DNA of 64,000 nucleotides from Candidatus Moraniibacteriota bacterium. GTDB lineage: Bacteria; Patescibacteriota; Minisyncoccia; Moranbacterales; GCA-2747515. How positions within the stretch are numbered: the stretch's first letter is position 1; each line of letters opens with the position of its first letter. Under the pieces are notes generated by a model, which was not told where the DNA came from, searched no databases, and saw only the letters and a program-made list of their open reading frames with translations. This document shows positions 28,690-45,787 of this stretch, piece after piece. The stretch covers positions 1,075,449-1,139,448 of the forward strand of contig CP065011.1 of NCBI GenBank assembly GCA_016699795.1. Direction: 5' to 3'. The translations under genes were made by a program, and so were the position numbers.

Positions 28690-29211
28690 TTATATCTCCA
28701 TTTCTATCTCTAAAATACCTATGTCTCCTTGCGAAAAACGCTCGTCTACAAAACTCTTTCCATTCTCACAAAATCCAAGTTTTTTATAAAACGTAATCGC
28801 TTTATTATTGTAATCTGCCACAGATACAAATGTTTTTTTATTTGGATCAAAAATCTTTTTTCCTTCTTCCCATAGGCGAGTTCCGATACCATGACCTTGA
28901 TACTCTGGAAGTACATAGAGCATTTTGAGAATATTTTGATCATCGTTTTGGAGAAATCGACCCACTCCCACGATATTTGTCCCCTCTTGAGCTACCAAAA
29001 TCTTGAGCGTATCACTTTGATTTTTTATATCCTCCAAACGACGCTGAAGATTTTCTGGGGTATTTTTCTTTTCAAAGAGTTTTTCTATCCATTCTTTGGT
29101 AATACCTAGCGATGTATTGGGGTACGTTACTAGCCATGTCTCATATACAATTTCTCCGATACGAGCGAGATCTTCTTCTTTCGCCTGCCGTACGCGTATT
29201 TCTTTTGTCAT
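28690..29211 (-). CDS. GNAT-family N-acetyltransferase
   Basis: YVLPEYQGHGIGTRLW (acetyl-CoA-binding Q/RxxGxG/A) and AITFYKKLGF. 173 aa. Confidence 0.75.
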   Translation of the reverse strand: MTKEIRVRQAKEEDLARIGEIVYETWLVTYPNTSLGITKEWIEKLFEKKNTPENLQRRLEDIKNQSDTLKILVAQEGTNIVGVGRFLQNDDQNILKMLYVLPEYQGHGIGTRLWEEGKKIFDPNKKTFVSVADYNNKAITFYKKLGFCENGKSFVDERFSQGDIGILEIEMEI

Positions 29212-29316
29212 ATTTTTCTTATGAGTGTTTTTTAAAAAAGATTTCTAAACTTTTTCTATCTCTTGTAATTTCTCCAAACATTCTTTTTTTTCTTTGTTCA
29301 TAGAGGTATATTATTT

Positions 29317-30504
29317 TTATTCTTCTTGAAACGCTTGGGAGAGGACGGATTGTTCGAGGGAGGTGAGACTATGCGTGTTTTGAATATGAAGTTCTCGAAG
29401 TTTTTTGGCTTTCTCCGATATCGCATCTAGTCGATCAACGATTTCTTTTTGTTCAGAAAGAGATGGGAGAGGGATTTTTATTTTTTTAAGTATTGTTTGA
29501 CTTAAATTTGGCTGAGCACCACCCCACGCCTTCAACAAAATATCATTTCTTTTTTTTAAAAGAAAATAATACAAATATTTATTATTTAATTTTTCTTTAT
29601 TCACAGTCATTCCTGCTATTGCTTGGTTTGTGCTCGCATCAATTCCAAGTATACCCGTCTTACCAGCCGTAGCACCATACATAGCAAATAAAACCGCTCC
29701 CTTGGAAAAGATTTTCGCACTACTTTTTTGCACAGCTTCTTTTGAAATTTTTTCTTTTGAATCCAAAATATTTACAGAATCTTTCAATTCTCCTGATTTT
29801 AACCATACAATATCTCCTTTATAATAACTTTCCATTGATCGCTTTGGAGTACCTCCGCTTGTCATTTTTAAAATCGAAGAATTTCCCAACTCTTTTTCCT
29901 CCCACCCTTTCTCTTTTCCTCCCGCAAATATTTTTGAAAGTTCGGCGGGAAGGAGCTGATTGATATCCGACAATGCTTCTTCATTGATTCGTTTGGCGTT
30001 TTGTATCTCCCCCAAAACCCTCTCTAACCTCTTCACAATCCTCTTTTGCTCTTCCAAAGAAGGAAGCGGGATTTCTATTTCCGAACATTTACTTTTATTT
30101 ATAATTGGCACAGTTGTTTTAGAAGATTTACTTTCAAAATCTTTTATCTTAGTCTGAAGAATGTAATATAAATATTCTGAATCTACCAAATTTTTAATAG
30201 GAACAAATGAATTAATTTGTTGATTTGTAGCCATTTCTTTCTTGGCTATGCTCAATTTTCCGATATTACCAATGCAACTCATTAAAACTGATCCTGACGA
30301 TATCCTTCTAATTCCAGACTCATAAAAACCCTTGTTTGATAATTTTTTCTTTGTTTCCAAAATATACTTCCCTTGATCTAAGTCTGATGGTCCTGCCCAC
30401 AAATAAGAATTTCCATAATAATCAATAATAGAAGTCTTTGGAGTATTCCCCGTTATAATCTCACACACTTCCCCAAGTTTTTTTCTTTGCCAATTATTTT
30501 TCAT
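29317..30504 (-). CDS. hsdS: Type I restriction-modification specificity subunit
   Basis: Two target-recognition domains, each followed by a conserved coiled-coil repeat (LPSLEEQKRIVKRLE; LPSLSEQKEIVDRLD). N-terminal KLGEVCEIITGNTP. Confidence 0.9.
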   Translation of the reverse strand: MKNNWQRKKLGEVCEIITGNTPKTSIIDYYGNSYLWAGPSDLDQGKYILETKKKLSNKGFYESGIRRISSGSVLMSCIGNIGKLSIAKKEMATNQQINSFVPIKNLVDSEYLYYILQTKIKDFESKSSKTTVPIINKSKCSEIEIPLPSLEEQKRIVKRLERVLGEIQNAKRINEEALSDINQLLPAELSKIFAGGKEKGWEEKELGNSSILKMTSGGTPKRSMESYYKGDIVWLKSGELKDSVNILDSKEKISKEAVQKSSAKIFSKGAVLFAMYGATAGKTGILGIDASTNQAIAGMTVNKEKLNNKYLYYFLLKKRNDILLKAWGGAQPNLSQTILKKIKIPLPSLSEQKEIVDRLDAISEKAKKLRELHIQNTHSLTSLEQSVLSQAFQEE

Positions 30505-31129
30505 AATGCTTTTTCATGTGTGGAATAAGATTGTCAAAAACATCAATTATTGAGGTTACTGACATTTCCATAAGTGAATTATTTTCAATTTTTTCTCCAC
30601 CTAAACTTTTTGGATGCACAGTATTTCGCAAGGCAACGAGGTCTTGTAAATATTTAATTGCAATATCGGTTTTAAAAAATTTAACTTGTTTGTAAAGCTC
30701 TACTAAATATCCTAAACCTAAATTCTTTGACTTTATTTTTTCTTCTGAAACTTTTTTTAAAAAACAATTTGTAGAACCTTTGTTACATTGATATTGCATA
30801 TAATCCAAAAGCAATCCTTCTACAATTGCTCCGACAATCTGGCAAATTACAAATTTATGATTTCTTTTAAAAATCGAATTGGGTTTTAAAAAAGTATATA
30901 TACTCACATGATAATCTAAAGCCATTCTTAATTCTGCAAGATTCTCTTTTAAAGTTTCGTCACAAATAAAGTCAAATACATTTCTATATCCCGTAAGACT
31001 CTTTGGGGAAATTTTTCCGCTTGGTGAATAATCTCTCCATGTACAATATTTGTCTGGTAAAAATTCCAAATTACCATGAACTTTTTCAAAACTTTCTTCC
31101 AATTCTTTCTTTTTCTTTTTCCAATCCAT
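30494..31129 (-). CDS. hypothetical alpha-helical protein embedded in R-M operon (possible HEPN-like; R-x3-H near C-terminus)
   Basis: Start placed at the ATG at 31129, 2 nt after the stop of the upstream gene. The ORF track extends it to 31219. It contains ALRNTVHP, a HEPN-like Arg/His motif with non-canonical spacing, and overlaps the hsdS start by 11 nt, implying translational coupling. Confidence 0.45.
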   Translation of the reverse strand: MDWKKKKKELEESFEKVHGNLEFLPDKYCTWRDYSPSGKISPKSLTGYRNVFDFICDETLKENLAELRMALDYHVSIYTFLKPNSIFKRNHKFVICQIVGAIVEGLLLDYMQYQCNKGSTNCFLKKVSEEKIKSKNLGLGYLVELYKQVKFFKTDIAIKYLQDLVALRNTVHPKSLGGEKIENNSLMEMSVTSIIDVFDNLIPHMKKHYEK

Positions 31130-31131
31130 AT

Positions 31132-31542
31132 TTATTTTTGAGAAAAATACATCAATCCTGTAAATAATGCTGTAAATATAGTTGCCAAACTCACTAAAAA
31201 CCCCATAATAATCTGCCAATTTCTCACAAACCAGTTTTTTGTTTTCTCTCTTCCTTTTGGAGTAAGGAAGAAAGATTGATTCTTAATTTCTCGACCTTCC
31301 AATAAAACCTCCCTCGCTTCCCCCGTCATTCCATCAATATATCCTTCTCGATAGAGATGCGCCAATGCGTTTGTAATATTCCCCGTTCCACAACCTTCTA
31401 ATTTCCATTTTTTAGGAATGGCATTTTGTAATTCAGTTGCATCCGTGTATGCCTTTTCTTTTGTAAGTTCTTCTATAATTCTAAGAACTTGTATGGTGTC
31501 TAGTTCGAAATAACTCATACTGTTTTTCTTATTTAAAGCCAT
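31132..31542 (-). CDS. PadR-like winged-helix protein with C-terminal transmembrane helix
   Basis: The N-terminal YFELDTIQVLRIIEELTKE...ALAHLYREGYIDG...FFLTPKGRE follows the PadR/wHTH pattern (L..L..EG.I...YY.LT..GR). The C-terminus has WQIIMGFLVSLATIFTALFTGLMYF. The ORF track starts at a TTG (31563); the first ATG is at 31542. Confidence 0.45.
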   Translation of the reverse strand: MALNKKNSMSYFELDTIQVLRIIEELTKEKAYTDATELQNAIPKKWKLEGCGTGNITNALAHLYREGYIDGMTGEAREVLLEGREIKNQSFFLTPKGREKTKNWFVRNWQIIMGFLVSLATIFTALFTGLMYFSQK

Positions 31543-31571
31543 TATTTCACAAAATGGTGACAAAATCCAAT

Positions 31572-31701
31572 TTTGGGTGTACTATGTGTGTAGGCGTAAG
31601 TCCTATCAGGGTTGTTCTCGATGTTCCCATCCATCGGTTGGCAAAAGTCGGGACATAACGGGCCTTGTAGGCAGTCGCCCCCTTCTGGGGGTTTTTGTTT
31701 T
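31572..31701 (+). ncRNA. GC-rich ~130-nt structured element ending in an intrinsic terminator (candidate small RNA); identity unknown
   Basis: Sharp local GC rise in an AT-rich genome. It has an internal TGTAGGC direct repeat and several short stems (CGATG/CATCG; GGGC/GCCC). The 3' end is CCCCC-TTCT-GGGGG-TTTTTGTTTT (31678-31701) on the + strand. No protein-coding potential consistent with the neighbours. Confidence 0.3.
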
Positions 31702-32350
31702 ACAAAAACAACTCATCAAACAAAACTTTTTCTCGAAACACACCGAGCCATTCCCTGTCATTTCTTTCATAGTTTCGGAATATTCCCCACGAAAGCATAT
31801 CTACAACTTGTAATCCTCTATTTTCATGAGATTTACAATGGTCAATATCCAATAAAATACTAGGAGCAAGTCTTCCTTCTAATTGCTTTCTAATATACGC
31901 ATTAAATTCTTCTATCTCTGGCTTTCCCATACATCTATCAAGGATGAATTCTACTCTATCGCCAGAATTTCTTTCAAAAGGTATTTGATCTAAGACTTTT
32001 CGTGCAACATAATTATATACACGAGATTTATTTCTTGTCAGTCTTTCGAAGACTTTCTTTTTATTAAGCGTTATCGAATACACACCAAAACGAACATCTT
32101 TTATCTGTTTATAGAAATATTTTTTTATTTCCAAAGTTGTAGAGGAGCCTTTTAATTCTTCTATTTTTCGTTTTTTGCTCTTTGATTTGTTCAATTTTCT
32201 TCTCAATGTCAGACTTACTGCTTTATGAAGTTTCCTATTTGCATCAAGTGAGCTGACTGCGACTATAGTAATAGTAAAAAACTTTGATGGTCGTTTGTTT
32301 ACGAAATCAAAACCAAGATCTCCACTTTCATCTAAATATAAATGCCACAT
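31700..32350 (-). CDS. DUF3800-family protein
   Basis: The N-terminal MWHLYLDESGDLGFDF matches the hallmark (Y/I)(I/L)DESG motif of DUF3800, and the C-terminal LQVVDMLSWGIFRNYE matches its conserved tail. 216 aa. Confidence 0.6.
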   Translation of the reverse strand: MWHLYLDESGDLGFDFVNKRPSKFFTITIVAVSSLDANRKLHKAVSLTLRRKLNKSKSKKRKIEELKGSSTTLEIKKYFYKQIKDVRFGVYSITLNKKKVFERLTRNKSRVYNYVARKVLDQIPFERNSGDRVEFILDRCMGKPEIEEFNAYIRKQLEGRLAPSILLDIDHCKSHENRGLQVVDMLSWGIFRNYERNDREWLGVFREKVLFDELFL

Positions 32351-32502
32351 ATAAATACTATTTTCTTTGTTTCTTTATTTTGCTATATTATATTTGGTCG
32401 CGAAGGTATATTCGCGCCCATGAAAATTGAGTCTTCTCATAGTGAAAGTCGGCAACATGGCCGTGCGTTGGAAAACCAACCTAGCTAGAGAGGGCTCTTT
32501 TT

Positions 32503-33924
32503 TCATATCTCTTTTTTCAATTCCTCCACCAGTTTCATTATTTCTTTTTCTCTCTCCTCTATCCCTTCAAGAATTTCTTTGGGTTCTCGGTGTATTTCTG
32601 TTTGAGCTGATGCGGGATGTTTACTATCGAGGTTGAAATCTTTTTTTTCTATTTCTTCTCGGGAAACTTTCCAAGCGTATTCGTTTTCCTTTCTATCGTT
32701 CCACCACTTTTTGAGAGGTGTAAATTCCTCATCCGTTATCCCTCGGTTTTTGGTGTATTGAGTCTTGAGATCTTTGGGAAGTGGGAGTTTGTAGTACCAA
32801 ATTTCTTTGGTGGGTTCACCTTTGGTGAAAAAAAGAAGATTCGTGTTTACTCCTGCATACGGACTAAATACCCCTTGCGGAAGTCGAACAATCGTATGAA
32901 GATTGCACGTTTCAAGAAGATGCTTCTTGATTCTCGTGGCAACGCCTTCGGCAAAGAGTACACCATCAGGAAGGACGATTCCCGCTCGTCCCCCATCTCT
33001 CAAAAGATGCACGAAAAGAAAAAGGAATAAAAGCTCTGTCGCTTTGGTTCGAAAGTCCGCAGGAAAGTTTTGCTCTACGCCATCTTTTACCGCTCCACCA
33101 AAAGGAGGATTTGCCACGATAATATCTACACGATCTTTGGCTGTGTATTCTTGATACGATTTGGCAAGCATATCATCATGCTTGATATTGTCGGGAATTT
33201 CTACGCCATGAAGGATGAGATTGGTACTTGCGAGAAGATACGGAAGATGTTTTATTTCGCATCCTCGAATACTCTCGTGAATTTTCTTTCGATCTTCGGT
33301 TGTTTTTTCTTTGGTTTCTTTGAGATATTCTAGAGCGTTTATGAGAAATCCTCCTGTACCACATGCGGGATCAAAAAGAGTTTCTCCTATTTTAGGATCA
33401 AGTGTTTCTATGATGAATTTCGTAAGCGGTCGTGGGGTATAAAATTCTCCATAGCTCCCAGCATTTTGTAGTCCCTTGAGAATCGTTTCATAAATATCAT
33501 TGAGATGGTGGCGATCTTTGTTTTTGGTAAAGTCGATTTCATTTATTTCATTGATCACTTGCCTGAGAAGTGTTCCTGACTTCATATAGTTGTATGCTTC
33601 AGAAAACATTTCCCGAACAAACAAAGCATCTTCCCTTTCTGTTTCGAGTTTTTTGAGTGTAGGGAAAAGCGTTGTATTGACGAAACTCAGAAGCTCTTCT
33701 CCTGTGATTCCCTCTTTGTCACTTGCCCAATTTCGCCATCTGATATTTTCGGGAAAGGGTGAGGAATATGAAAGATTTTCAAGTTCTCGAATTTTTTCTT
33801 GATCATCGAAAATTTTAAGAAACAAGAGCCATACGATTTGTTCGATTCTCTGAGCATCGCCTCCAATTCCTTCATCTTGTCGCATTACATTGCGGATTCG
33901 CTTGATCATTCCTTCTATGGGCAT
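32503..33924 (-). CDS. hsdM: Type I restriction-modification DNA methyltransferase subunit (N6-adenine)
   Basis: SAM-binding FDPACGTGGFL and catalytic NPPFGG. The N-terminal HsdM helical domain is present. 473 aa. Confidence 0.9.
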   Translation of the reverse strand: MPIEGMIKRIRNVMRQDEGIGGDAQRIEQIVWLLFLKIFDDQEKIRELENLSYSSPFPENIRWRNWASDKEGITGEELLSFVNTTLFPTLKKLETEREDALFVREMFSEAYNYMKSGTLLRQVINEINEIDFTKNKDRHHLNDIYETILKGLQNAGSYGEFYTPRPLTKFIIETLDPKIGETLFDPACGTGGFLINALEYLKETKEKTTEDRKKIHESIRGCEIKHLPYLLASTNLILHGVEIPDNIKHDDMLAKSYQEYTAKDRVDIIVANPPFGGAVKDGVEQNFPADFRTKATELLFLFLFVHLLRDGGRAGIVLPDGVLFAEGVATRIKKHLLETCNLHTIVRLPQGVFSPYAGVNTNLLFFTKGEPTKEIWYYKLPLPKDLKTQYTKNRGITDEEFTPLKKWWNDRKENEYAWKVSREEIEKKDFNLDSKHPASAQTEIHREPKEILEGIEEREKEIMKLVEELKKEI

Positions 33925-33927
33925 ACG

Positions 33928-36285
33928 CTATTTTTGTTGTTGGTAAATATGATTTTGTATTTCTTGTACCGCTTCGAGATAGCGATCACGACCACCAAAA
34001 GCTTCGACGATTTCAAATTGTGATCCGAATGTTATAAACGGAGCGACTTTGAGATCTTCTATTCCATCGATTGCTTCTACTCCCTGATCAGCATATTTTT
34101 CCAAAAGAGCTTCGATAACTTTTTGTGCCATTCCTTCATATTTTGTGAAAATGTCTCGTTTTTTTACTTCATCAACTCGTTCTTTTCTTGTAAGCGGTTT
34201 CTTGCCATAGGCAAGGTGCATAATAATATCAAATTCATCTATGTCTTCCATTCCGATTTCTTTTTTGAGTTCGTCAAAAAGTATTCCTTGTTCGATAAGC
34301 TCTTGTATAAGAGTTGTTTTGCGAATGTCTTTATTCCAGTCATTGAGAAAATCTTCTAAATTTTGATATCGATTTTTGAGTTGTTCACTCGCATAGGTTA
34401 TGAGAGATTCTGTAGTGAGCTTTCCTGTTTTTGGATCAATAATAGAAACGACACGATGTATCACATTGAAATCTACTTGTCCTTCTTGTATAACAATTCT
34501 CGTTTTCTTTTTTTCTTCCTCTTCATCTCTTGGAAGAAGTATTTCTTCTTCAGGATATTCTTCTCGTATTTCTTCGGGAGTTTGAGAAGTTTCGTTTATT
34601 TCTTTGGGATCAAGTTCCTCGCTTTCATTGTCTTTTATAATAGCTCGAACGGGCTCACCATCAAAATCTTTATCAGCAAAAAGTCGAGTTGCACCCGAAA
34701 AATCAAGAATAGTAAAATAGTATTTATCAAAATCACTATTGATTCTCGTTCCTCGTCCAATAATTTGCTTAAATTTGGTCATAGAGTTTATGGCACTGTC
34801 AAGAATGATCAATCGACATGTTTGTGCATCTACTCCCGTAGTAAGAAGTTCTGATGTCGTTACAATCGTTGGATAGGGAGATTCGGGGTTGATGAAATTT
34901 TCTATTTCTCTTTTACCCTCTTCTTCATCTCCCGTCATACGCATAATATAGCGACGATTCTTTTTCATCTCTTGGGGATTCCTCTGGACAAGTGCCTGTC
35001 GCATTCGTTCAGCATGTTCGATATTGGCACAAAAGATAATCGTTTTTTGCATGGGGTCAGTCTCTTGAAGATACTCGGTTATTTTATCAGCTACTTCATT
35101 GATACGATCTTCGACAATAATTTTCTTGTTATAATCCGAAACATTGTATACACCATCTTCTATACGATCGCCATCTTGATCTTTTATATATGCATCGGGA
35201 CGCCATTCAATATCTTTGTCCATTATGTAGCGAACAACTCGATAAGGAGCAAGAAAACCATCTTCTATTCCTTGCTTGAGGCTATAGGTATAGACGGGTT
35301 CTCCAAAATATTTATAATTGTCTGCACCTTCTATGGATTTCGGGGTAGCGGTAAGTCCTATATGCGTTGCGTGAGAAAAATAATCCAGGACCTCTCGCCA
35401 TGTTCCATCTTCATTGATCCCTCCTCGATGACACTCGTCGATAACGACAAGATCAAAAAAGTCCTGAGAAAACTCTCGAAAAAGTTGCTTTTCCTCTTCG
35501 TTTCCTGTTATACCTTGGTACAAAGAAATATAGACTTCATACGAATGATCTGCTTTTCTATTTTTGATAAGTGTCATTTTTTCTCCAAAGGGACGGAAAT
35601 CTTTTTGCATTGTCTGGTATGCAAGAGCCTTTCTATCTACAAGAAAAAGAATTCTCTTCTTTGTTCGAGATTTCCAAAGACGATATATAATCTGAAAAGC
35701 AGTATACGTTTTCCCTGTTCCTGTCGCCATCACAAGCATCATCCGTTTCTTTCCTTTGGCAACATGTTCAACAACCTCATTAACAGCTCTTGTTTGAAAA
35801 TATCGGGGAGTTCGTCCACTTGTGTCTATAAAATATTCTTCAGCAACAATGCCTTTTTCTTCTTCGGTTTGAATACCCTTTACTCTAAGATATCGCTCAT
35901 AGAGTTTTTCAGGAGTTGGAAAATTATCCATTTCGATCATAGTTTCTTTCCCTGTAGAAAAATCATATTCCACAAAAGCATCTCCGTTGGTCGCATAACA
36001 AAAAGGAAGTCCTATTTTTTCAGCGTATTTTTTCGCCTGCTCTAATCCATCGAAAACTCTATGTTCATTATCTTTTGCTTCAATTATTGCAAGAGGAATA
36101 TTTGATTTATATTGTAATATATAATCAGCTCGTAATGGTTTACCTCGAGAAACTACAGTTCCACGAACAATAATTCGCCCATCAGTAAAACTCACTTCTC
36201 TTCGTATTTGAGAAGGTTTCCATCCAGACTTTTCAAGGGATGGATCAATTTTTTGTGCTCGTATATCTTCTTCAGAATATTTCAT
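33928..36285 (-). CDS. hsdR: Type I restriction enzyme R subunit (endonuclease/helicase)
   Basis: N-terminal PD-(D/E)xK nuclease region (AIIEAKD), then an SF2 helicase with Walker A (MATGTGKTYTA) and DEAH-like (DECHRG). Its stop is 1-3 nt from the hsdM start. Confidence 0.9.
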   Translation of the reverse strand: MKYSEEDIRAQKIDPSLEKSGWKPSQIRREVSFTDGRIIVRGTVVSRGKPLRADYILQYKSNIPLAIIEAKDNEHRVFDGLEQAKKYAEKIGLPFCYATNGDAFVEYDFSTGKETMIEMDNFPTPEKLYERYLRVKGIQTEEEKGIVAEEYFIDTSGRTPRYFQTRAVNEVVEHVAKGKKRMMLVMATGTGKTYTAFQIIYRLWKSRTKKRILFLVDRKALAYQTMQKDFRPFGEKMTLIKNRKADHSYEVYISLYQGITGNEEEKQLFREFSQDFFDLVVIDECHRGGINEDGTWREVLDYFSHATHIGLTATPKSIEGADNYKYFGEPVYTYSLKQGIEDGFLAPYRVVRYIMDKDIEWRPDAYIKDQDGDRIEDGVYNVSDYNKKIIVEDRINEVADKITEYLQETDPMQKTIIFCANIEHAERMRQALVQRNPQEMKKNRRYIMRMTGDEEEGKREIENFINPESPYPTIVTTSELLTTGVDAQTCRLIILDSAINSMTKFKQIIGRGTRINSDFDKYYFTILDFSGATRLFADKDFDGEPVRAIIKDNESEELDPKEINETSQTPEEIREEYPEEEILLPRDEEEEKKKTRIVIQEGQVDFNVIHRVVSIIDPKTGKLTTESLITYASEQLKNRYQNLEDFLNDWNKDIRKTTLIQELIEQGILFDELKKEIGMEDIDEFDIIMHLAYGKKPLTRKERVDEVKKRDIFTKYEGMAQKVIEALLEKYADQGVEAIDGIEDLKVAPFITFGSQFEIVEAFGGRDRYLEAVQEIQNHIYQQQK

Positions 36286-36314
36286 TATTTTAGATATTTA
36301 ACAGATATACCCCC

Positions 36315-36425
36315 ATCCTACTCCTCCCCCAAGCCAAGATCAAGGAAAAAAAGCTATTTTTCTTTCCTCTTATATTTTTTATTTTAAAAATGAAAAAAAG
36401 CTTAGCTCCCCTTCTTATTTTTTCA
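36315..36425. repeat. ~111-bp direct repeat, copy 1 (partner at 38775..38885, ~92% identity)
   Basis: Direct base-by-base comparison: atcctactcct(c/g)cc(c/t)caagcca(a/g)(g/a)atcaaggaaaaaaagct...aaaagcttagctcc(c/a)cttcttattttttcag. The copy includes the last codons (LKK-stop) of the RhuM-Doc gene. Confidence 0.85.
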
Positions 36426-37374
36426 GCAATTGCAAAATTAACCCGATCATTTTGTCTTTATCTTTGGGATCGCTCTCGGCAACCAAGAGTGTAAGAGCTG
36501 TCAGTGCTTGGGGTGACATTTTGTCTTTGTGTAATATTCCCACTTTGTTCAAAAACCAAACAAAGGCAAACGCTCCACTTCTTTTGTTGCCATCGGTAAA
36601 TGGATGATTTTTGACGAAAAAATAAAGGAGATGTGCGGATTTTTCTTCCAGAGTTTCATATGCATCACGTCCAAAGAAAGATTGAAAAACATTACCCGAA
36701 ATACCAGAAACTGCATCTTTTTGTTTTTCTTGAGCGAATAGTTCTGTTGCTTCTTCTTTCCTTTGTAAATTATATTTCAATGTTGCGATAGCATTTTCTA
36801 ATTCTTTGGCTGTTATTTTTGCTTGTTTTTTGGTCATTCCCCTTTTCGGAAAAGTTGACGTGTCATAGGCATTGAGCGATAACCACGTATCAGCAAACAT
36901 TTTCACAAGCTCCAACGTATCTCCAGCTTTAACATTTCCATTTTTTGGCAAAAGTTTTTGAACCGATTCGATCGCGCGTAGAAATTCATCGTAATTTTTG
37001 GTAATACGTTTTTTGTTTATCGTGTATCCCGTGACAATATGTTGACGTAAAGTCTTGGTCGCCCATTGACGAAATTTTGTAGCATTTACCGAGTTTACAC
37101 GATACCCCACAGAAAGAATCACATCGAGGTCAAAATATTCCACTTGATATGTTTTTCCATCACTGGCAGTTGTTGCAAAAAATGCAACAACTGAATCTCT
37201 GTGTAATTCTTCCTCTTTGAATATATTTTTTATATGACGTGAAATAACTGATTTGTCACGACCAAAAAGATCAGCAATTTGTTGCAAACTTGCCCAAAGG
37301 GTTTCTTTTTTTAGATCACCTTTAAACTCTATTTCACCATTTTTCGACTGAAAAATAATAATCTCTTTTTTCAT
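36415..37374 (-). CDS. RhuM-family protein with C-terminal Fic/Doc domain (Doc-type toxin motif)
   Basis: The N-terminal half resembles RhuM (IADLFGRDKSVISRHIKNIF...ATTASDGKTYQVEYFDLDVILSVGYRVNS..ATKFRQWAT). The C-terminal half carries HPFTDGNKRSGAFAF, the Doc/Fic HxFx(D/N)GNKR motif. Confidence 0.7.
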   Translation of the reverse strand: MKKEIIIFQSKNGEIEFKGDLKKETLWASLQQIADLFGRDKSVISRHIKNIFKEEELHRDSVVAFFATTASDGKTYQVEYFDLDVILSVGYRVNSVNATKFRQWATKTLRQHIVTGYTINKKRITKNYDEFLRAIESVQKLLPKNGNVKAGDTLELVKMFADTWLSLNAYDTSTFPKRGMTKKQAKITAKELENAIATLKYNLQRKEEATELFAQEKQKDAVSGISGNVFQSFFGRDAYETLEEKSAHLLYFFVKNHPFTDGNKRSGAFAFVWFLNKVGILHKDKMSPQALTALTLLVAESDPKDKDKMIGLILQLLKK

Positions 37375-37475
37375 ATATCCAGGTTAAATCCTACATTTTG
37401 GAGTTATTTTTTTATTCCCTGATCCAGGTTTTTTTCTTTCATCTTCTTGTAATATTTTTATAGATTCCACGGAAG

Positions 37476-38519
37476 TTATTTTTCCTCACTATCCGGTACG
37501 AGTTCCAAAAACTTATCAAAATCACTCCTAAAAATTTTATCTTGGGTGATGCGATATATTTCAAACTGTGTCTCTGCGTGGAGCTTGGCTTCTTCGTGGG
37601 TAATTTTACCAACGCCGGTCAAAATCTCTGCTTCGTTGAATTCCAAGAAACCATCCAAACGATTCGCCCAATCCTCCATCGTCATCGGGATACGGCGTTC
37701 TGCCTGAAGCTCGGCATAATCAAGGTACATTGAAACAAGACGCTCCAAAAAATCCATTTCTTTTTGAGTCAGATAGTTTTTTGCGATAGACACATCAAAC
37801 CTTTGTATTTTTCCTTCTGGTGCAGCCTCCCACGAGGTGAGTCCCATATGCTTTTTTTGCGCATTTGCTCGCTTGACTATAAGTTCAGCCGCGGTGTGCC
37901 TATGTACTGCATAATGAAGCTTATTTTGAACCATTTTGAAGAAATCTTTTGTCGTTTTTGCCGATGAGTCATAATCCACACTTGTTGCATAAATATCGGT
38001 CACTTTCTGATAAAACATTCGCTCACTTAGACGTATTTCTCGTATCAATTGCAACTGGCGATCAAAATATTCATCGGTAAACATGTGACCTTTTTTGAGG
38101 CGCTCTACATCCATCGTCCATCCTTGTATGGTATAGTCCTTGACGATTTGACGTGCCCATTTTCGAAACTGCACAGCACGTTCATTTTCTATCTTGAAAC
38201 CCACTGAAATAATAGCTTGGAGATTGTAATGTGCTGTTTTGTAATTCTTACCATCAGTTGCAGTTATTAAGTATTGCTTAATAACTGAATCGTTTAGCTC
38301 ACCATCTTCAAAAAGTTTTTTCAAGTGCTGGTTTATTGCCGGCACGCTAACGCCGTACAATTCCGCCATCATCTTTTGTGTCATCCAAATATTTTCATCT
38401 TCATAGCGCATTTCGATGGATTGCTCCACGTCACCTTTTGTGGCTATAAACGTCAAATATTCAGCAGTAGCTGATGTATGCGATGATACGTGTAACTTTT
38501 TTCCCATTATCTTCTTCAT
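37476..38519 (-). CDS. RhuM-family protein (second paralogue, no Fic motif)
   Basis: ITATDGKNYKTAHYNLQAIISVGFKIENERAVQFRKWARQIVKDYTIQGWTMDVERLKKG is the conserved RhuM core. 347 aa. Confidence 0.7.
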   Translation of the reverse strand: MKKIMGKKLHVSSHTSATAEYLTFIATKGDVEQSIEMRYEDENIWMTQKMMAELYGVSVPAINQHLKKLFEDGELNDSVIKQYLITATDGKNYKTAHYNLQAIISVGFKIENERAVQFRKWARQIVKDYTIQGWTMDVERLKKGHMFTDEYFDRQLQLIREIRLSERMFYQKVTDIYATSVDYDSSAKTTKDFFKMVQNKLHYAVHRHTAAELIVKRANAQKKHMGLTSWEAAPEGKIQRFDVSIAKNYLTQKEMDFLERLVSMYLDYAELQAERRIPMTMEDWANRLDGFLEFNEAEILTGVGKITHEEAKLHAETQFEIYRITQDKIFRSDFDKFLELVPDSEEK

Positions 38520-38774
38520 ATGTTCGTAGTGTATTGGTATTCTCGAATAGTATTTTCAGATTTACTTTTTCGCGTTGAGTTATTTTTTGGATTTCATTCT
38601 TATCTTTTATACTCTTTCCCAAATTAGATTACGTAGAGTGAAATTTTGAAATTTCGAGCGAAAATCGTAAAAATCAAGAAGTGCTATCAAGATAACACAA
38701 TGAGATTTTTATCGATTTGCATCCGAAATAGTAAGGTTTCACACGTACTATGGTTTGGGAAAAAATATATTTCA

Positions 38775-38885
38775 ATCCTACTCCTGCCTCAAGCCAAAAT
38801 CAAGGAAAAAAAGCTGTTTTTTCCCTCTTATATTTTTTATTTTAAAAATGAAAGAAAAAGCTTAGCTCCACTTCTTATTTTTTCA
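38775..38885. repeat. ~111-bp direct repeat, copy 2 (partner at 36315..36425)
   Basis: See copy 1. This copy includes the last codons (LKK-stop) of the FHA-domain gene 38875..40914. Confidence 0.85.
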
Positions 38886-40914
38886 GTGACATCCTTCTCT
38901 TTATTTCGGGGAAAAACCCATAGTCTTTTCGAAAGTTAAAAGCGGGATTTTGAGGATCAACTTGATATTTTAAACATACTCTAGAAAATACCGAATCGAA
39001 ATTAAAATTTGGATCAGTCATTGCATGACGAAAGTTTCTCGCTTCCATAAAAACTTCAGCAAGAATTTTAGTACGTATAGTTCCAAACGATTCATTTCGA
39101 AACAATGGCTCCTCCGCAAATCCAACTCCCAACATTTTTTCGTTTCGTTGATTTTTTACTTCAACAGTAAAACGAGGAACGCCCGTTTCATCGAATCCCT
39201 CTATATTATTTTTGTGTAAATTTTCCAAAATCTGTAAGACTTTTTGTTCTTCTTCGGCATCAAAATAAATCACCATTTTATCAAAACGATTAAATGCCTT
39301 TGCATTTCCGTACAGAGGAATTTTCATTTGACTATGCAAACCGCTCTCATGAAATGCCTCAACTGTCTTAGAAAAAATTTGTTTAACATATTCTGGCTTT
39401 AAATTAAAATAAAGTCTTCCAAGAGAACTCTGATTACGAAAACCTCCATTTACATTACAATAAAGCCAATATCCATTATCTCCGATCATTACCCCCTTCC
39501 CCTTTTGAGATTCTTCCTTTAAATTCTCTCTCATTTTTTTAATTTGAGTAGAATATTCCCATGCCCACCGCTGAACAGTTGCATCATTTTCTTTATATCT
39601 GGGATTATCAATGTTTTTATTATAAAAATCATGATAAAAAAGCTCATCTAAATCACGCCCTTGTTGCAAATCTCTTTCAATTTCCAATTCATGTTTTTTG
39701 GTAAACTCAAAAAATTTTTCGATAGCGAGTTCTTTTTCAGAACTAGATTTTTGAATCTCAATTTGTTCTTTATTTAATCGCCTCGGCCTTTCTACTTGTA
39801 ACGTAGTCCCATTCATAGAGCCTACATCTTCTATAAGCAATTTCTCATCTCGCAACTCTATTCTAAGATGAGCGCGCGAAACAGTATCGGGAAATTGAAA
39901 CCGAAACGCATTATTTCTACCAATAGTAAAGGGTTCGTTTTTTCTAATTCCTTTGTAGCCCATTCTCGGATTTTCTTGATCAAACGTCGCAGGATCAATA
40001 AGAAGATAATCAGCATTCCAACGCAAATCGTTTCGCACATCAATAATTTGCAAGTATTTATTGGCAAGATATACATCAATAGGTATTCCCGAATATTCAA
40101 TTTCTTTCTCTGATCCTTTTAAATTAAACCGCTCTGACAAAATTTCTTTTCCGGAAGTTCCTATTTCCTCTTGTAGCTCTTCTAAAGCTAAGCCGGATTT
40201 TTCTTTAATTCTTTTGACAGCATTTTCAATATCCGAATCAGCACTCTCCGGAAATGCTTGTTTCCAAATTTCAAAAAATGTTTCTTTTATTTGAATTATT
40301 CTTCTTGCTTCATCAGGAGTAAATTCTTGATTCATTGCTGAGAGAATATTCTTCTTTACATAATCTCGCTGAGTTGCTGAAATAGTATGGGGATCTGCTT
40401 TTCTTATCGAAGTAGCAAGGTTTCCGAAAATTCTTATTTTATTTTCTTCAGAAGATGTAGCACCAAATTTCTCATATATTGGACCCAATGCATTTATAAT
40501 GCCAGAAACAGCTTCTCTTTTATACTGTACTTTTTTTTCTTGAACAATTTGATTATATTGTTCTTGTGTCCATCCTTTTTGAAAAAAAACTCCTATTTGT
40601 TCATCGACAACTTCACACAAATCAGTCTGCATATCTTCAATGATTGGATATTTTTTTCGTAATGATTCTACAAAATGATCCACATTGAGTGCATATAGAT
40701 CTTCTTGATTTGGAAAATAACCACGCTCCACCAAAGTCAAAAGCCTTAACGCTCTTTCATTTATTTTTATTGTCTCCACAGCTTTAGTAAAGAAGTCTTT
40801 TTCTGATACAGCTTGTGATTCTGATAAAGTAGAATTAGGCTTCTCGATAAATTCCGAAGAAGATGGGTTTTGAAATTGTTTTATTCTTTCTTCCATATTC
40901 TCTATATTACACAA
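38875..40914 (-). CDS. large FHA-domain protein of unknown function
   Basis: The central FTIGRNNAFRFQFPDTVSRAHLRIELRDEKLLIEDVGSMNGTTLQ is a canonical FHA pattern (G-R...S/T..H......D.GS.NGT). The rest is an ~330-aa helical N-terminus and a ~250-aa uncharacterised C-terminal domain. Confidence 0.55.
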   Translation of the reverse strand: MCNIENMEERIKQFQNPSSSEFIEKPNSTLSESQAVSEKDFFTKAVETIKINERALRLLTLVERGYFPNQEDLYALNVDHFVESLRKKYPIIEDMQTDLCEVVDEQIGVFFQKGWTQEQYNQIVQEKKVQYKREAVSGIINALGPIYEKFGATSSEENKIRIFGNLATSIRKADPHTISATQRDYVKKNILSAMNQEFTPDEARRIIQIKETFFEIWKQAFPESADSDIENAVKRIKEKSGLALEELQEEIGTSGKEILSERFNLKGSEKEIEYSGIPIDVYLANKYLQIIDVRNDLRWNADYLLIDPATFDQENPRMGYKGIRKNEPFTIGRNNAFRFQFPDTVSRAHLRIELRDEKLLIEDVGSMNGTTLQVERPRRLNKEQIEIQKSSSEKELAIEKFFEFTKKHELEIERDLQQGRDLDELFYHDFYNKNIDNPRYKENDATVQRWAWEYSTQIKKMRENLKEESQKGKGVMIGDNGYWLYCNVNGGFRNQSSLGRLYFNLKPEYVKQIFSKTVEAFHESGLHSQMKIPLYGNAKAFNRFDKMVIYFDAEEEQKVLQILENLHKNNIEGFDETGVPRFTVEVKNQRNEKMLGVGFAEEPLFRNESFGTIRTKILAEVFMEARNFRHAMTDPNFNFDSVFSRVCLKYQVDPQNPAFNFRKDYGFFPEIKRRMSLKK

Positions 40915-41031
40915 TTTTTTAATTTATCATACGTCCACATAAACATTTCAAATTACCTCTTTAGTTTTTTGCTCATAAATATCAATCAGTTTTTGGCAAT
41001 ATTTACATACTCTTTCTTCTCTCCCCTCATT

Positions 41032-41805
41032 CTATCGTTTTACGCTATCCCAATTAAATTTCCAAGGATCGGTTTTTCGTTCAGGAGCAATATCAGCATG
41101 ACCTACTATGTTTTTTATCTTATAACGACTTTTGATATCAGAAATAAGCGCATTGAGAGCACTATATTGTTGAGCATCAAAACCACTTTCTTTTGTTCCC
41201 ATAAGTTCAATACCAATCGAAAAATCATTTACATTTTTTCGCCCATCTGGAAGTTTTGATACTCCCGCATGATAGGCGATATTTTTCTCTTCTATAAGGC
41301 GATAAACCCCGCCTCGTCTGTCGATAAGATAATGAGCTCCAACTCCGTAATCTTTATATTGTTGTATAATCTTTTCCCGATCATATACATCACCTCCCGA
41401 AGCATTATACGAAGAGTGAATAACGATAGTATCGATATTTCGCAATTGTTCAGGCGTATGATAACCGAAAGAAAGTAATGTTTCTTTTATTTCAAGAGAT
41501 GTTTCTTTTTTCTCTTTTGAAATTGGTTTTTCTTGTTTTGGAAGAATTTTTTCTTTTTGCGTATCATTCAAAACCTCTGGAGAATTTTCTTTTTCCAAAG
41601 AATCTTTTTCTGAAGACAAAGGAAGTTCGGATACGTTTTCTTGAGGAATACTTTCTTGATATGTCTCCTCTTGATGAAAAGAAGGTGAATCGGAAGGTAA
41701 AGAATTTTGAAAAGATTCTTGTTTTTCTCCTCCCACAAAAAAGAAAAAGAGAGCAAAAAAAAGACATACCAAGAAAATACTTCCATACACGATGAAGTGA
41801 TACAT
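41032..41805 (-). CDS. N-acetylmuramoyl-L-alanine amidase (Amidase_2/PGRP fold), membrane-anchored
   Basis: IVIHSS...YHAGVS...NDFSIGIEL.G...F...Q...L..LI.....YKIKNIVGHADIAPERKTDPWKFNW carries the Amidase_2 Zn ligands and the GH.DIAP.RK.DPG pattern. N-terminal TM helix plus a low-complexity linker. Confidence 0.75.
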   Translation of the reverse strand: MYHFIVYGSIFLVCLFFALFFFFVGGEKQESFQNSLPSDSPSFHQEETYQESIPQENVSELPLSSEKDSLEKENSPEVLNDTQKEKILPKQEKPISKEKKETSLEIKETLLSFGYHTPEQLRNIDTIVIHSSYNASGGDVYDREKIIQQYKDYGVGAHYLIDRRGGVYRLIEEKNIAYHAGVSKLPDGRKNVNDFSIGIELMGTKESGFDAQQYSALNALISDIKSRYKIKNIVGHADIAPERKTDPWKFNWDSVKR

Positions 41806-41929
41806 ATTTTATTTTCTTATGAAAAAATTTCCATCATCCCTACCTCTTTCTAGTATAGAAGAAAAAGCCTCTCCTGTAGAGAGTCTCTTTTCTTTCTTCC
41901 ATTTTGTATATAAAAAAGTTTTTCACTTT

Positions 41930-42994
41930 TTACTTTAAACCTATTCGCTTAAAAAGATTTTCATATTCACACACCATACGATCTATTGAAAATCGTTTTT
42001 CTATTGTTTCTCGACATTTTTTTGTTGAAATTATTTCTATTTTTTTTACAGCTTCTACCATTTGATCGACGGTATCTACAATAAATCCATTGATCGTGTC
42101 CTGAATTATTTCTGATACAGAACCCCGCCTAAAAGCAACAACAGGAGTTCCGCATGCCAGAGCCTCAATCATAACCAATCCGAAAGGCTCTTCCCAAAGA
42201 ATTGGAAAAAGAAGGCATTTTGCTTTTTTCAAATATTCCGTTTTCTCGAAAAAATTTGCCTCTCCGACATACTGAACATATTTTCCATCAATCTCTTTTT
42301 TTACTTCTTTCTCAAAAAAGTCTTTGTCTACAGGATCCACTTTGGCCACAATAATCAAAGGAATTTTAGTTTTTTTGGCAACAAAAATAGCTTCCAAAAT
42401 TCCTTTGAAGGGGGTGATTCTTCCAAGAAACAAAAGATACTCTTCTTTTTTCGCCTCAAATGGAAATTTTTCAATAGGAATAGCATTATAAATAACCTGC
42501 GTGTGGGGAAAAAAAGCTAATGGTTGACGCTGATTCTCACTAATATACACCATCTCATGTCGATAGAGTGATAAAGTTTTTCGATAGTATTCTTCATGGG
42601 CTTGAATATGGGTAGTATTGTGAAAGGTTACTACCAAAGGAACTGTAAAAAAATCTAGAAAATTTATTGTATTTCCCTCAAGAAAAAAGCGAAATACAAT
42701 AGGTTCATAATGGAAATGAATACAATCAAATTCATGTTGTCGACGAAGGACGGTAGCTATTTGATCTAGCTCCCATCTTCTATTTTCTTCTCTATGTTCA
42801 TCGGTTGGATAAGGACTCGTTTCGACACGAGTAATGCCTTCTTGTTTTAGAGTTGAACCTCCACAGCAAAATAAAGTTACCTCATGTCCTTTTTGAGCTA
42901 AACCACGAGCTAGCTCATCAACAATACGTTCGATACCTCCATACTTTTTCGGAGGAACAGGGACCATAACAGGTGAAACAATAGCTATTTTCAT
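41930..42994 (-). CDS. GT4-family glycosyltransferase
   Basis: N-terminal KIAIVSP..VPPKKYGGIERIV and C-terminal EPFGLVMIEALACGTPVVA (the GT4 E-x7-E region). Confidence 0.8.
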   Translation of the reverse strand: MKIAIVSPVMVPVPPKKYGGIERIVDELARGLAQKGHEVTLFCCGGSTLKQEGITRVETSPYPTDEHREENRRWELDQIATVLRRQHEFDCIHFHYEPIVFRFFLEGNTINFLDFFTVPLVVTFHNTTHIQAHEEYYRKTLSLYRHEMVYISENQRQPLAFFPHTQVIYNAIPIEKFPFEAKKEEYLLFLGRITPFKGILEAIFVAKKTKIPLIIVAKVDPVDKDFFEKEVKKEIDGKYVQYVGEANFFEKTEYLKKAKCLLFPILWEEPFGLVMIEALACGTPVVAFRRGSVSEIIQDTINGFIVDTVDQMVEAVKKIEIISTKKCRETIEKRFSIDRMVCEYENLFKRIGLK

Positions 42995-42999
42995 TTATT

Positions 43000-44034
43000 T
43001 TATTCTTTTAATTTTTTATAAACATTTTCATAATTTTTTGCCATAACAGAAATATCAAAATTTTCTTCAGCATCAATCCGACAAGTCTCTCTTGATAACT
43101 CACCAACTTTTTGTAAAGCCTCTTGAAATAATATTTCATTTTCCACAACAAATCCTGTTTTACCATTTTTGAGAACTTCTTTTATCGCTCCATTATTTAA
43201 AGCAACAACAGGAGTTCCGCATGCCAAAGCCTCAATCATAACCAATCCAAAGGCTTCATTCCAACGAGATGGAAACAATAATGCAGAAGCATGCGCAAGT
43301 AAAAAGGATTTTTCTTTATGACCAATTTCTCCAATAAAAGTAATATTCTTTCCGTCGATATAGGGGAAGACCTCTTTTTTCAGAAAAGGAATATCTTCTT
43401 CTCTTATTTCCCCTGCGATTATTAATTGTTTTTTCAATTGATGAGCGGCTCGAACAGCAATATCAATTCCTTTTCTTTCTGAAAGAGTTCCAAGAAAAAG
43501 AAAAGTGTCATTCTTTATTTTTTCAAAATTTGGATGAAACGTTTTCACATCAATTCCATGATATACCGTAGCAACATAATGAAGATCTGGGGAAAGTTTT
43601 CGTTGAGCATTACTAATAGATACAAATGGATATGCTTTGAAAGCTTCTGCCAAACAAGGAAAATCTGGCGGTAAACTGCTGTGCAATGTTGTTACCATCG
43701 GAAGAGACAAGAAGGGTGCGAAAGATAAGGGATGAAATCCCATATGATTATGTATCACATCAAAATCTCCAATACGTTTTGCTATTTCAAAAAAGGAAAG
43801 AAATTCATACTGCTTAATTCCATTCCAATCAAAACCACCAATAAGCTCATACATCGATTTGGGAATAACCGAAACAAGTTTTCCTCGAACATGAGATCCC
43901 CCACAAGCAAAGGTGGTAACATCATGACCCAAATGAGTTAATCCTTTTGCAAGATTAGCTACTATCAATTCAGAACCACCATATTTTTCAGGGGGAACTC
44001 TTTTCCAAAGTGGCGCAAGTAAAGCTATTCTCAT
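43000..44034 (-). CDS. GT4-family glycosyltransferase (paralogue)
   Basis: RIALLAP...PPEKYGGSELIV and EAFGLVMIEALACGTPVVA. Adjacent to the previous GT4 with a 5-bp gap. Confidence 0.8.
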   Translation of the reverse strand: MRIALLAPLWKRVPPEKYGGSELIVANLAKGLTHLGHDVTTFACGGSHVRGKLVSVIPKSMYELIGGFDWNGIKQYEFLSFFEIAKRIGDFDVIHNHMGFHPLSFAPFLSLPMVTTLHSSLPPDFPCLAEAFKAYPFVSISNAQRKLSPDLHYVATVYHGIDVKTFHPNFEKIKNDTFLFLGTLSERKGIDIAVRAAHQLKKQLIIAGEIREEDIPFLKKEVFPYIDGKNITFIGEIGHKEKSFLLAHASALLFPSRWNEAFGLVMIEALACGTPVVALNNGAIKEVLKNGKTGFVVENEILFQEALQKVGELSRETCRIDAEENFDISVMAKNYENVYKKLKE

Positions 44035-44041
44035 ATTTTAT

Positions 44042-45619: not shown

Positions 45620-45787
45620 CCCTCCAAAAAAACGGTGTTATGCAATCTTCTCACATTGATTGTTCATCCTCTTCTAAGAGTCTACCACAGAATACGAAAT
45701 TCTCCTAATATAAAAGAAAAAATATAAATAGCCTCCTCAAAAATTTTAAGCTTTTCAAATAAATTTTACCTACCCTAAGAAGTAAGT

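Follow-up and report, generated by a model that had tools for sequence, protein, structure and literature searches.

A type I restriction-modification (R-M) operon in the genome of a Candidatus Moraniibacteriota bacterium is preceded by a pair of genes enclosed by two copies of a 112-nucleotide (nt) direct repeat, and we describe here this repeat, the genes that it borders, and the related arrays in which part of it recurs. The window analyzed is a stretch of 64,000 nt (assembly GCA_016699795.1, contig CP065011.1, positions 1,075,449 to 1,139,448); it is AT-rich (~35% G+C), and the neighborhood is chromosomal, with aminoacyl-tRNA synthetases, SHMT, and a tRNA gene. On the minus strand, which carries the genes surrounding the repeats, the order is glycosyltransferases, an amidase, a protein with FHA and HopA1 domains (FHA-HopA1), repeat copy 2, a 255-nt leader, RhuM, a RhuM(N)-Fic/Doc fusion (RhuM-Doc), repeat copy 1, and hsdR, the ATG of which sits 29 nt downstream of copy 1; hsdM, a DUF3800 gene, two unknown open reading frames (ORFs), hsdS, and a GNAT acetyltransferase gene follow. 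The operon is a type I R-M system (type IB, EcoAI family), in which hsdR, hsdM, and hsdS are found together, the latter two recognized by both Pfam and PADLOC. RhuM-Doc is a member of the RhuM/Fic/DOC family, with an N-terminal RhuM-type region and a C-terminal Fic/Doc domain in ~320 amino acids (aa); it matches PADLOC candidate PDC-S23 over its full length (1.1e-111) and has >8000 homologues, some of them annotated as 'virulence protein RhuM/Fic/DOC family protein'.

The two repeat copies lie 2460 nt apart from start to start and are identical at 104 of 114 columns of a gapped alignment (91.2%, two 2-nt indels, blastn E 1.6e-34), with identity dropping off sharply at both ends. An original prediction made from the sequence alone had described two ~92% direct repeats of 111 bp enclosing exactly two genes, RhuM and RhuM-Fic/Doc. 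The repeats are real, with the predicted coordinates off by at most one base, and the Pfam domains agree with the two genes. An 18,335-nt Logan contig from SRR11674012 (L001), which is a separate assembly, is 100% identical to window positions 28875-47209 with both copies included, so the two-copy arrangement is not an artefact of the metagenome-assembled genome (MAG). No third copy of the 112-nt repeat is present in the window, which represents 5.4% of the 1.19-Mb contig. A degenerate third copy considered for the RhuM/RhuM-Doc intergenic region (37375-37475, 70% match) gained no support from multiple alignment.

On the minus strand, the repeat opens with the three final codons of RhuM-Doc and its stop; next come, in this order, a terminator-like hairpin and T run, an A/T-rich tract, and a promoter-like core of the form TTGATy-17 nt-TAGGAT (Table 1). 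Ten distinct copies of the element in four assemblies match TTGATnTTGnCTTGnGGnAnGAGTAGGAT, and their 29-nt core reads TTGATyTTGrCTTGrGGsArGAGTAGGAT, preceded by ...AGAAAAATAGCTTTTTT... Start codons on the same strand are found 21-40 nt past TAGGAT in the copies measured, the exception being window copy 2, which is followed by the 255-nt RhuM leader. In a more distant relative (L110), genes for RhuM-Doc, Fic, and KilA-N are separated by diverged versions (TTGAAA-17 nt-TAGGAT/TGGAAT) in which the hexamers and the 17-nt spacing are kept and the spacer sequence is different. From this arrangement we infer that the core is a sigma-70-type promoter with an A/T-rich upstream tract. The tract itself could also pair as a weak hairpin, the closing pairs of which are not conserved in relatives. 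Two other candidates were set aside: a leader peptide or Shine-Dalgarno-ATG unit inside the element, since an ATG follows TAGGAT in some copies only and the reading frames are not conserved, and an alternative promoter, TTGrGG-17-TATAT, which is likewise present in some copies only.

Table 1. Positions of the repeat copies, their parts, and the surrounding genes in the window, and of repeat-bracketed RhuM-Doc loci in metagenomic contigs (positions of those contigs)
Feature	Position	Strand	Remarks
Repeat copy 1	36315..36426	-	112 nt, RhuM-Doc stop codon to hsdR; 91.2% identical to copy 2
Repeat copy 2 (derived)	38775..38886	-	112 nt, FHA-HopA1 stop codon to RhuM leader
CTGAAAAAATAA, native RhuM-Doc L-K-K-stop	36415..36426	-	First 12 nt of copy 1; from homologue C-termini
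CTGAAAAAATAA, copied onto FHA-HopA1 end	38875..38886	-	...KRRMS-LKK-stop; from homologue C-termini
Terminator-like hairpin GAAGGGGAGCTAAGCTTTTTTTC + T run, copy 1	36392..36414	-	Consensus scan and folds; putative function
Hairpin equivalent, copy 2	38850-38874	-	2-nt insertion
A-tract/T-tract GAGGAAAGAAAAATAGCTTTTTTTCC ahead of -35 hexamer	36344..36369	-	UP-like / weak hairpin; within the ~58-nt element common to relatives
Promoter-like core, copy 1	36315..36343	-	TTGATC (36343-36338), 17-nt spacer, TAGGAT (36320-36315)
Promoter-like core, copy 2	38775..38803	-	TTGATT (38803-38798), 17-nt spacer, TAGGAT (38780-38775)
RhuM family protein	37476..38519	-	347 aa; Pfam PF13310, 4.7e-104; PADLOC candidate PDC-S05
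RhuM(N)-Fic/Doc fusion	36415..37374	-	319 aa; Pfam PF13310 (1e-20) and PF02661 (1.8e-11)
Leader between copy 2 and RhuM start codon	38520..38774	-	255 nt; ~165 nt form one long imperfect hairpin
FHA + HopA1-domain protein	38875..40914, or 38875..40896	-	Shorter form is the NCBI call (673 aa); last three codons and stop inside copy 2
hsdR	33928..36285	-	EcoAI/FtnUII family, type IB; NF046051, 1049.9 bits vs cutoff 550
Remaining R-M block	29317..33924	-	hsdM 32503-33924, DUF3800 31700-32350, two unknown ORFs, hsdS 29317-30504
Bracketed RhuM-Doc, L061	5160-6695		
Bracketed RhuM-Doc, L032	526-1690		
Bracketed RhuM-Doc, L045	5890-7060		
Bracketed RhuM-Doc, L099	26-1569		
Bracketed RhuM-Doc, L051	464-2246		
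Bracketed RhuM-Doc, L083	5463-7028		

Look-up by exact protein yielded L009, a contig of 3147 bp, and L010-L019, ten contigs from a related population, the RhuM-Doc proteins of which are 80-95% identical to that of the window. This population is closely related to the window organism; in L010, the GNAT gene and 50 nt upstream of it are 95.4% identical to window positions 29259-28868. The 3' ~58 nt of the window repeat recurs in three other Moraniibacteriota assemblies, at 2-3 copies per locus and always at the borders of gene blocks. In L010-L019 the element precedes RhuM-Doc, an optional block with an Apyc1-like metallo-beta-lactamase gene, and hsdR. The L013 layout is element, RhuM-Doc with three further genes and a Bro-N pseudogene, element, and hsdR; L010, L011, and L017 follow this layout up to the second element and continue with the Apyc1-like block, another element, and a different hsdR. 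In L020, the Moraniibacteriota MAG M50B92, the order is element, DinD/Bro-N, element, DKNYY, element, and hsdR. Relatives have ~58 nt of the element in common, reduced to 32 nt at one border of the Apyc1-like block, and the 21 kb of L010 hold exactly the three array copies and no others. The 3' 57 nt of window copy 1 is 96.5% identical to the element ahead of hsdR in L013-L016; copy 2 compared with the hsdR-proximal element of this sister lineage reaches 91.5% over 47 nt, lower than copy 1 on a small number of sites. The original prediction had taken the 111-bp unit as the module, and this stands in part: the conserved, functional-looking portion is the 3' ~58 nt, which relatives carry without the LKK/terminator portion.

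A loose pattern for the core found one contig, L020, among 185,579 GTDB species genomes; a stricter DNA pattern of the element had no match among the GTDB genomes, and the core pattern had none in the JGI metagenomes or IMG/VR. A shared two-copy arrangement, which the original prediction had named as evidence against itself, is not what the relatives show: they carry other cassettes between their copies, and the occupied/empty polymorphism among them concerns the Apyc1-like block, not the RhuM pair. Several features of the sister loci are recorded here in their own right. The Apyc1-like gene of L010 (13141-13947, minus strand; Pfam 'Anti-Pycsar_Apyc1') is inserted divergently just upstream of hsdR, and L017 has the same block with the gene apparently broken. 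Farther along in L010 (16644-20530), a KilA-N gene lies between hsdR and a fused hsdM-S gene, and a T5orf172 gene follows.

The element coincides with junctions between close relatives. L013 and L010 are 99.84% identical over 3729 nt through the last base of TAGGAT, and beyond this position they are unalignable or ~72% identical; past the breakpoint L010 has the Apyc1-like block and an extra copy of the element, and the hsdR alleles of the two are ~72% identical. The junctions of the block are of the corresponding form, with a single copy of the element where the block is missing and two copies around it where present, the right one being 32 nt. In L017 the middle copy is chimeric, with parts of copies a and b, so element copies exchange sequence. 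Between the window and L010 the GNAT flank is common to both, and the R-M systems and left flanks are different: the sister system consists of hsdR, a KilA-N gene, an hsdM-S fusion, and T5orf172, and its left flank is a pirin gene in place of FHA. The left edge of copy 2 is a synteny breakpoint relative to the L010 population. The variable region ends near 29259, upstream of the GNAT gene, where 95% identity to the sister lineage resumes. RhuM-Doc is itself mosaic (window 36415-37374 against L010 10001-10981), with an identity that is 47-60% in nt 1-270, rises to 97-100% in nt 406-855, where it exceeds that of the orthologous GNAT flank, and is 86% in the last 100 nt. Judged from these sequences, the region is a recombination hot spot. 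The original prediction that the repeat marks a cassette border upstream of hsdR is borne out by this strain-variable, recombining region and by the L013/L010 breakpoint at the element. A scan of ORFs of >=170 aa across window positions ~17-64 kb revealed no domain of a recombinase, integrase, or transposase, and no recombinase genes were found among the called genes adjoining the arrays in L010-L020.

The coding end contained in the repeat indicates which copy is derived. On the minus strand both copies open with CTGAAAAAATAA, the L-K-K-stop of the gene terminating there (RhuM-Doc at copy 1, FHA-HopA1 at copy 2), as had originally been noted and is confirmed from the sequence. LKK is the C-terminus in 44 of the 120 best RhuM-Doc homologues (consensus IGLILQLLKK), and the closest RhuM-Doc relative, L009, has the same LKK codons, TTGCTGAAAAAATAA. 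None of the 29 FHA-HopA1 homologues ends in LKK, and the family tail after ELKRRM is variable, with 2-6 residues. The ending is thus native to RhuM-Doc and foreign to FHA-HopA1, and copy 2 is therefore the derived copy; by its sequence it duplicates the RhuM-Doc 3' end and the RhuM-Doc/hsdR intergenic region, joined to the FHA gene right after ...KRRMS. This reverses one part of the original proposal, that of a resident gene 3' end as the target, since the coding end is that of RhuM-Doc and not that of FHA. The companion proposal of a portable module made of a 3' end and its downstream sequence holds for the border role, but the module is not neutral, its LKK-stop being the property of RhuM-Doc. 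The suggestion that the RhuM pair had been mobilized recently is not borne out; the copies differ by 9%, and on these few sites a very recent event is unlikely. The 12-mer CTGAAAAAATAA occurs once elsewhere in the window (982-993, at no gene end; mean of 0.07 occurrences in shuffles), inside or antisense to a membrane-protein ORF, and was rejected as a further element and taken as a chance occurrence.

We think it probable that the repeat is a composite terminator/promoter module that provides both transcription signals and portable homology for the gain, loss, and swapping of cassettes, resembling the promoter-early stem-loop (PeSL) elements of T4-type phages. In this Moraniibacteriota lineage, near-identical copies of the promoter-like part (~32-58 nt) head each unit of a strain-variable array of defense/toxin-type cassettes that ends in the type I R-M operon, and the module would halt transcription from the upstream unit and restart it for the next. 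The element flanks unrelated cassettes and is therefore usable as portable homology, of which the copies would supply 30-110 bp. Copies that recombine inside one genome, or with DNA arriving from relatives, could then delete, duplicate, insert, or swap cassettes, with loop-out circles and Campbell-type re-insertion as the expected intermediates, and the arriving DNA could replace the stretch that reaches from an element to the conserved GNAT flank. One such unit, located between two copies, is the block of RhuM and RhuM-Doc. Homologous recombination is the mechanism that we infer for these exchanges.

The window copies carry an extension beyond the common element, in that they continue to match for another 55 nt to the left, across the hairpin and up to and including the last three codons of RhuM-Doc. 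A plain target duplication or a Campbell insertion into an FHA-hsdR site fails to account for this. The extra ~55 nt was presumably copied from the RhuM-Doc 3' flank onto the FHA-HopA1 gene end, and two routes are possible, between which we do not choose. In the first, copy 2 would once have followed another, upstream RhuM-Doc that was later deleted or rearranged, fusing FHA to its last 12 nt; a RhuM/RhuM-Doc circle integrating into or beside a resident RhuM-Doc is an example that would also fit the mosaic gene. This route fits the position of the copy 2 left edge at the synteny breakpoint with the sister lineage. In the second, a break upstream of copy 2 would have been repaired by synthesis primed in the shared element on copy 1 and copied beyond the element, ending in illegitimate sealing in the FHA tail.

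Several observations weigh against the module interpretation. Shared stretches of 32-58 nt are short substrates for recombination of the RecA type, and an extra event is needed to explain the last 12 nt of RhuM-Doc on copy 2. The terminator-like hairpin is present only in the two window copies, and the predicted fold of the entire repeat is no more stable than those of shuffles (z -0.8 and -0.2; -0.8, -0.2, -1.0, and -0.4 for both strands of both copies), with no family in Rfam matching it. The core agrees with the Escherichia coli consensus at only 8 of 12 positions, for which reason the consensus scanner made no call, and terminator and promoter activity are alike predictions for the module. 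Within the lineage the 17-nt spacer is conserved as strongly as the hexamers, which could equally fit a protein-binding or recombinase site. One copy in L010 (L010_b) faces the 3' end of a gene on the opposite strand, where a promoter has no obvious use. The copy count in the source genome covers the 64-kb window. Finally, an FHA-hsdR empty site with a single copy, expected from the original prediction, was not found via FHA homologues, because these are at most 66% identical and are not syntenic.

PeSLs are composite terminator/promoter cassettes of T4-type phages that comprise the stop codon of the upstream gene, an A/T-rich tract, sigma-70-like -35 and -10 elements, a stem-loop, and a Shine-Dalgarno (SD) sequence with the next start codon; they flank variable genes, are enriched by variable ORFans, account for indels between close relatives, and mediate shuffling via mini-circles (Arbiol et al. 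2010, PMC2839356; Comeau et al. 2014, PMC4122927). The anatomy of the window module resembles this description, with a stop codon at its start, an A/T-rich tract, a putative sigma-70-like -35/-10 pair, and a candidate stem-loop, ahead of the SD sequence and start of the following gene. As with PeSLs, two to three near-identical copies border variable units, here RhuM, RhuM-Doc, DinD/Bro-N, DKNYY, the Apyc1-like block, and hsdR alleles, and junctions between close relatives fall in the module, as at the L013/L010 breakpoint and in the chimeric L017 copy. The differences are that the window module lies in the chromosome of a Candidate Phyla Radiation (CPR) bacterium and not in a hyperplastic region of a T4-type phage; that there are two to three copies per locus in one array ahead of a type I R-M operon, with cassettes of defense/toxin type; and that it has no sequence similarity to the phage elements, its promoter and terminator activity and its mini-circles being predictions. 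The element is PeSL-like and not a member of the PeSL family, because it is chromosomal among housekeeping genes and absent from IMG/VR.

RhuM-Doc genes elsewhere were compared by aligning each of 80 JGI metagenome loci encoding RhuM-Doc relatives with itself. Both flanks are available for 61 genes, and direct repeats of 32-224 nt (82-91% identity) tightly bracket 6 of these, in unrelated contigs and with a repeat sequence that differs per locus (Table 1). Such bracketing is found at 7 of 4304 control positions of these loci (0.16%), giving a binomial P of ~1e-9 with control positions that are not independent. In L061, where hsdS and a KwaB-like gene lie upstream, the repeat is the leader and first ~210 nt of hsdR, so that a truncated hsdR', RhuM-Doc, and a full hsdR succeed one another; the repeats of L032 and L045 correspond to the 3' ends of an FtsX-type gene and of cstA, respectively. 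In four of the six loci, the inserted DNA has its right end within about -10 to +30 nt of the stop codon of RhuM-Doc. These observations suggest a characteristic, duplication-associated arrival of RhuM-Doc genes next to gene ends, and the bracketing repeats could be either target duplications or donor-derived homology arms. An hsd gene is nearby in 13 of the 39 long loci among the 80. A full-length RhuM paralogue next to RhuM-Doc is seen in none of the 80, making the RhuM and RhuM-Doc pair of the window unusual.

Two of the alternatives to an exchange module stand on a par. The first, which we consider unlikely, is an in-situ tandem duplication that is now diverging, the repeats being its decaying ends with no role in cassette exchange. 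The copies are indeed direct, 2.46 kb apart, and 91% identical, and copy 2 has the last codons of RhuM-Doc, as a duplicated RhuM-Doc end would. However, what lies between the copies is not itself duplicated; the paralogy of RhuM and RhuM-Doc is distant and leaves no repeat at the DNA level, and a tandem duplication therefore needs a further, precise deletion. The promoter-like part also borders unrelated cassettes in three other assemblies and forms the breakpoint of near-identical strains, and the 3' 57 nt of copy 1 is nearer to the sister hsdR copy than to copy 2, from which it has ~7 differences.

The second, to which we give an equally small chance, is that the ~32-nt core is an att-like site at which a dedicated trans-acting recombinase, integron-like or Xer-like, captures cassettes. 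The 29-32-nt core including its spacer is nearly invariant in ten copies; homology always stops at the same right edge (...GTAGGAT), with a left limit that differs (32, ~58, or 112 nt); the strain breakpoint falls exactly at this right edge; and the L010_b copy flanks its block in reverse orientation. Homologous exchange would likewise leave a sharp edge where homology stops, though, and the L110 variant retains the promoter hexamers and not the spacer. No integrase, recombinase, or transposase appears in the scanned window ORFs or in the called genes by the L010-L020 arrays, and the repeat is without dyad symmetry, an attC-like fold, or R''/R' core motifs.

Traits shared with integron cassette arrays are mostly one-gene cassettes in one orientation and repeats of ~60-120 nt that start at or near a stop codon. 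Unlike integrons, the window has no IntI or attI (in the scanned ORFs and in the called genes by related arrays), its repeat forms no imperfect palindrome (z -0.2 to -0.8) and lacks RYYYAAC/GTTRRRY cores, and a promoter-like element is found per cassette where integrons share one Pc promoter. An attC-like or otherwise structured RNA or DNA is unlikely, because no fold is better than shuffles on either strand (z -0.2 to -1.0) and Rfam has no match. As in the attL/attR pairs of integrative elements, which restore the 3' end of a target gene, the direct repeats include a coding-sequence end and bracket inserted genes; they differ in that there is no integrase among the scanned ORFs, the coding end belongs to the inserted RhuM-Doc and not to the resident FHA-HopA1, and the copies are only 91% identical. 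A transposon or miniature inverted-repeat transposable element (MITE) with target-site duplication was also rejected, the block having no terminal inverted repeats and the repeats being 112 nt long, 91% identical, and in possession of the inserted gene's end.

A broader version of the site-specific idea, in our view just as doubtful, would make the core a dedicated recombination site, or a recombinase- or regulator-binding site, of a defense-cassette capture platform ahead of type I R-M operons in Moraniibacteriota, with integron-like logic and a promoter supplied to every cassette. RhuM-Doc genes (PDC-S23) could then be small non-autonomous mobile cassettes that insert by gene ends and duplicate 30-220 nt of the flank, and the six bracketed metagenomic genes would be their footprints.

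In a further alternative, RhuM-Doc cassettes would have an insertion mechanism of their own that duplicates a long target, and the 112-nt repeat would be that duplicated target. Bracketing at 6 of 61 genes against 7 of 4304 control positions favors it, as do the L061 repeat, which is the start of hsdR, and the L032 and L045 repeats, which are 3' ends of neighboring genes. We nevertheless judge it quite improbable for the window: the repeat begins with the last 12 nt of RhuM-Doc and so is not a plain copy of an FHA-hsdR target, the unit comprises two genes and a 255-nt leader, and the same element borders cassettes with no RhuM-Doc in L020. We know of no RhuM or Fic/Doc enzyme activity that would perform such an insertion. 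Last, a generic genome-wide intergenic repeat (repetitive extragenic palindromic (REP)/MITE-like, or a common terminator family) that occurs twice here by chance is very improbable, for although the count in the source genome is limited to 64 kb, that stretch holds two copies only, every copy in related assemblies sits in an analogous array, terminal inverted repeats are absent, and a single GTDB contig matches the core.

The gene content of the array is of a known kind. RhuM-like and DOC genes have been described in R-M operons and neighborhoods (Anantharaman et al. 2013, PMC3710099), and the statement of the original prediction that RhuM is a recurrent passenger of type I R-M loci is supported for RhuM and RhuM-Doc by that work and by the RhuM homologue loci examined here. 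The locus also resembles the hsd 'immigration control' region in that RhuM and RhuM-Doc adjoin hsdR, hsdM, and hsdS and that close relatives exchange entire R-M alleles at one fixed position of the chromosome. It differs from the usual passengers in position: the nearest RhuM homologues are inside operons, between hsdM and hsdS and with overlapping stop and start codons, whereas the RhuM genes of the window are upstream of hsdR, in a separately bounded unit between repeated modules. These closest homologues (L021-L029, 85-87% aa identity) lie in type I operons directly after hsdM, and in L021 and L022 hsdS follows RhuM with the stop and start codons overlapping. Genes for SduA_C, OLD-like/AAA_15, GmrSD_N, and DUF3800 proteins also occur among these loci. 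No copy of the element was found at the nearest RhuM homologues inside hsd operons.

With genes of these types already known (PMC3710099; PADLOC PDC-S05 and PDC-S23), the proposed module-mediated shuffling in a CPR chromosome would be the new part, and the cassette idea of the original prediction appears to have been right in spirit. If the module interpretation is correct, a shuffling mechanism of T4-type phages would also be at work in the chromosome of an ultra-small CPR bacterium, with the same modules acting as expression signals and as recombination handles to remodel a defense-gene array ahead of a type I R-M operon. This would offer a simple, recombinase-free account of the diversification of defense islets in reduced genomes, and the element would serve as a sequence tag for finding new cassettes in Moraniibacteriota-type lineages. 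The repeat-bracketed RhuM-Doc pattern hints at a typical mode of insertion of widespread candidate defense genes.

The remaining features of the locus and its surroundings are described for completeness. The 255-nt RhuM leader is strongly structured, with a minimum free energy of -58.7 kcal/mol compared with -38.8 +/- 4.1 in shuffles (z -4.9; 0 of 200 shuffles as stable), and the ends of its hairpin resemble terminal inverted repeats (TATAyTyTTTCCCAAA). It has no match in Rfam and no second copy in any DNA fetched for comparison; it may have arisen as a MITE-like insertion or may act as a structured 5' leader. The FHA-HopA1 fusion (~675 aa) represents a conserved family of unknown function with 29 homologues at 48-66% identity and is also represented in L002-L008; in L002-L004 a gene for a 90-aa ATP-cone protein is immediately ahead of it, and the context is otherwise unconserved. 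In the R-M operon, the DUF3800 gene and two ORFs (31132-31563 and 30494-31219) split hsdM from hsdS, and neither ORF has a match in Pfam, NCBIfam, or PADLOC.

Farther out in the window, a 61-nt intergenic motif rich in TTTGAAAATT palindromes is found at 24325-24385 and 48218-48278 (70% identity), with an inverted repeat at 48196-48295, and resembles the region ahead of RhuM-Doc in L110 (96-142; 85% over 48 nt); it may be a second promoter/operator motif typical of the lineage. A 49-nt direct repeat with 88% identity occurs downstream of a VTT-domain gene (25138-25186 and 25653-25701, 515 nt apart), in a stretch (25138-25701) where no larger ORF was scanned. Two adjacent paralogues of family-4 glycosyltransferases have a 77-nt stretch in common (42132-42208 and 43199-43275, 87% identity), which suggests gene conversion or a recent tandem duplication.

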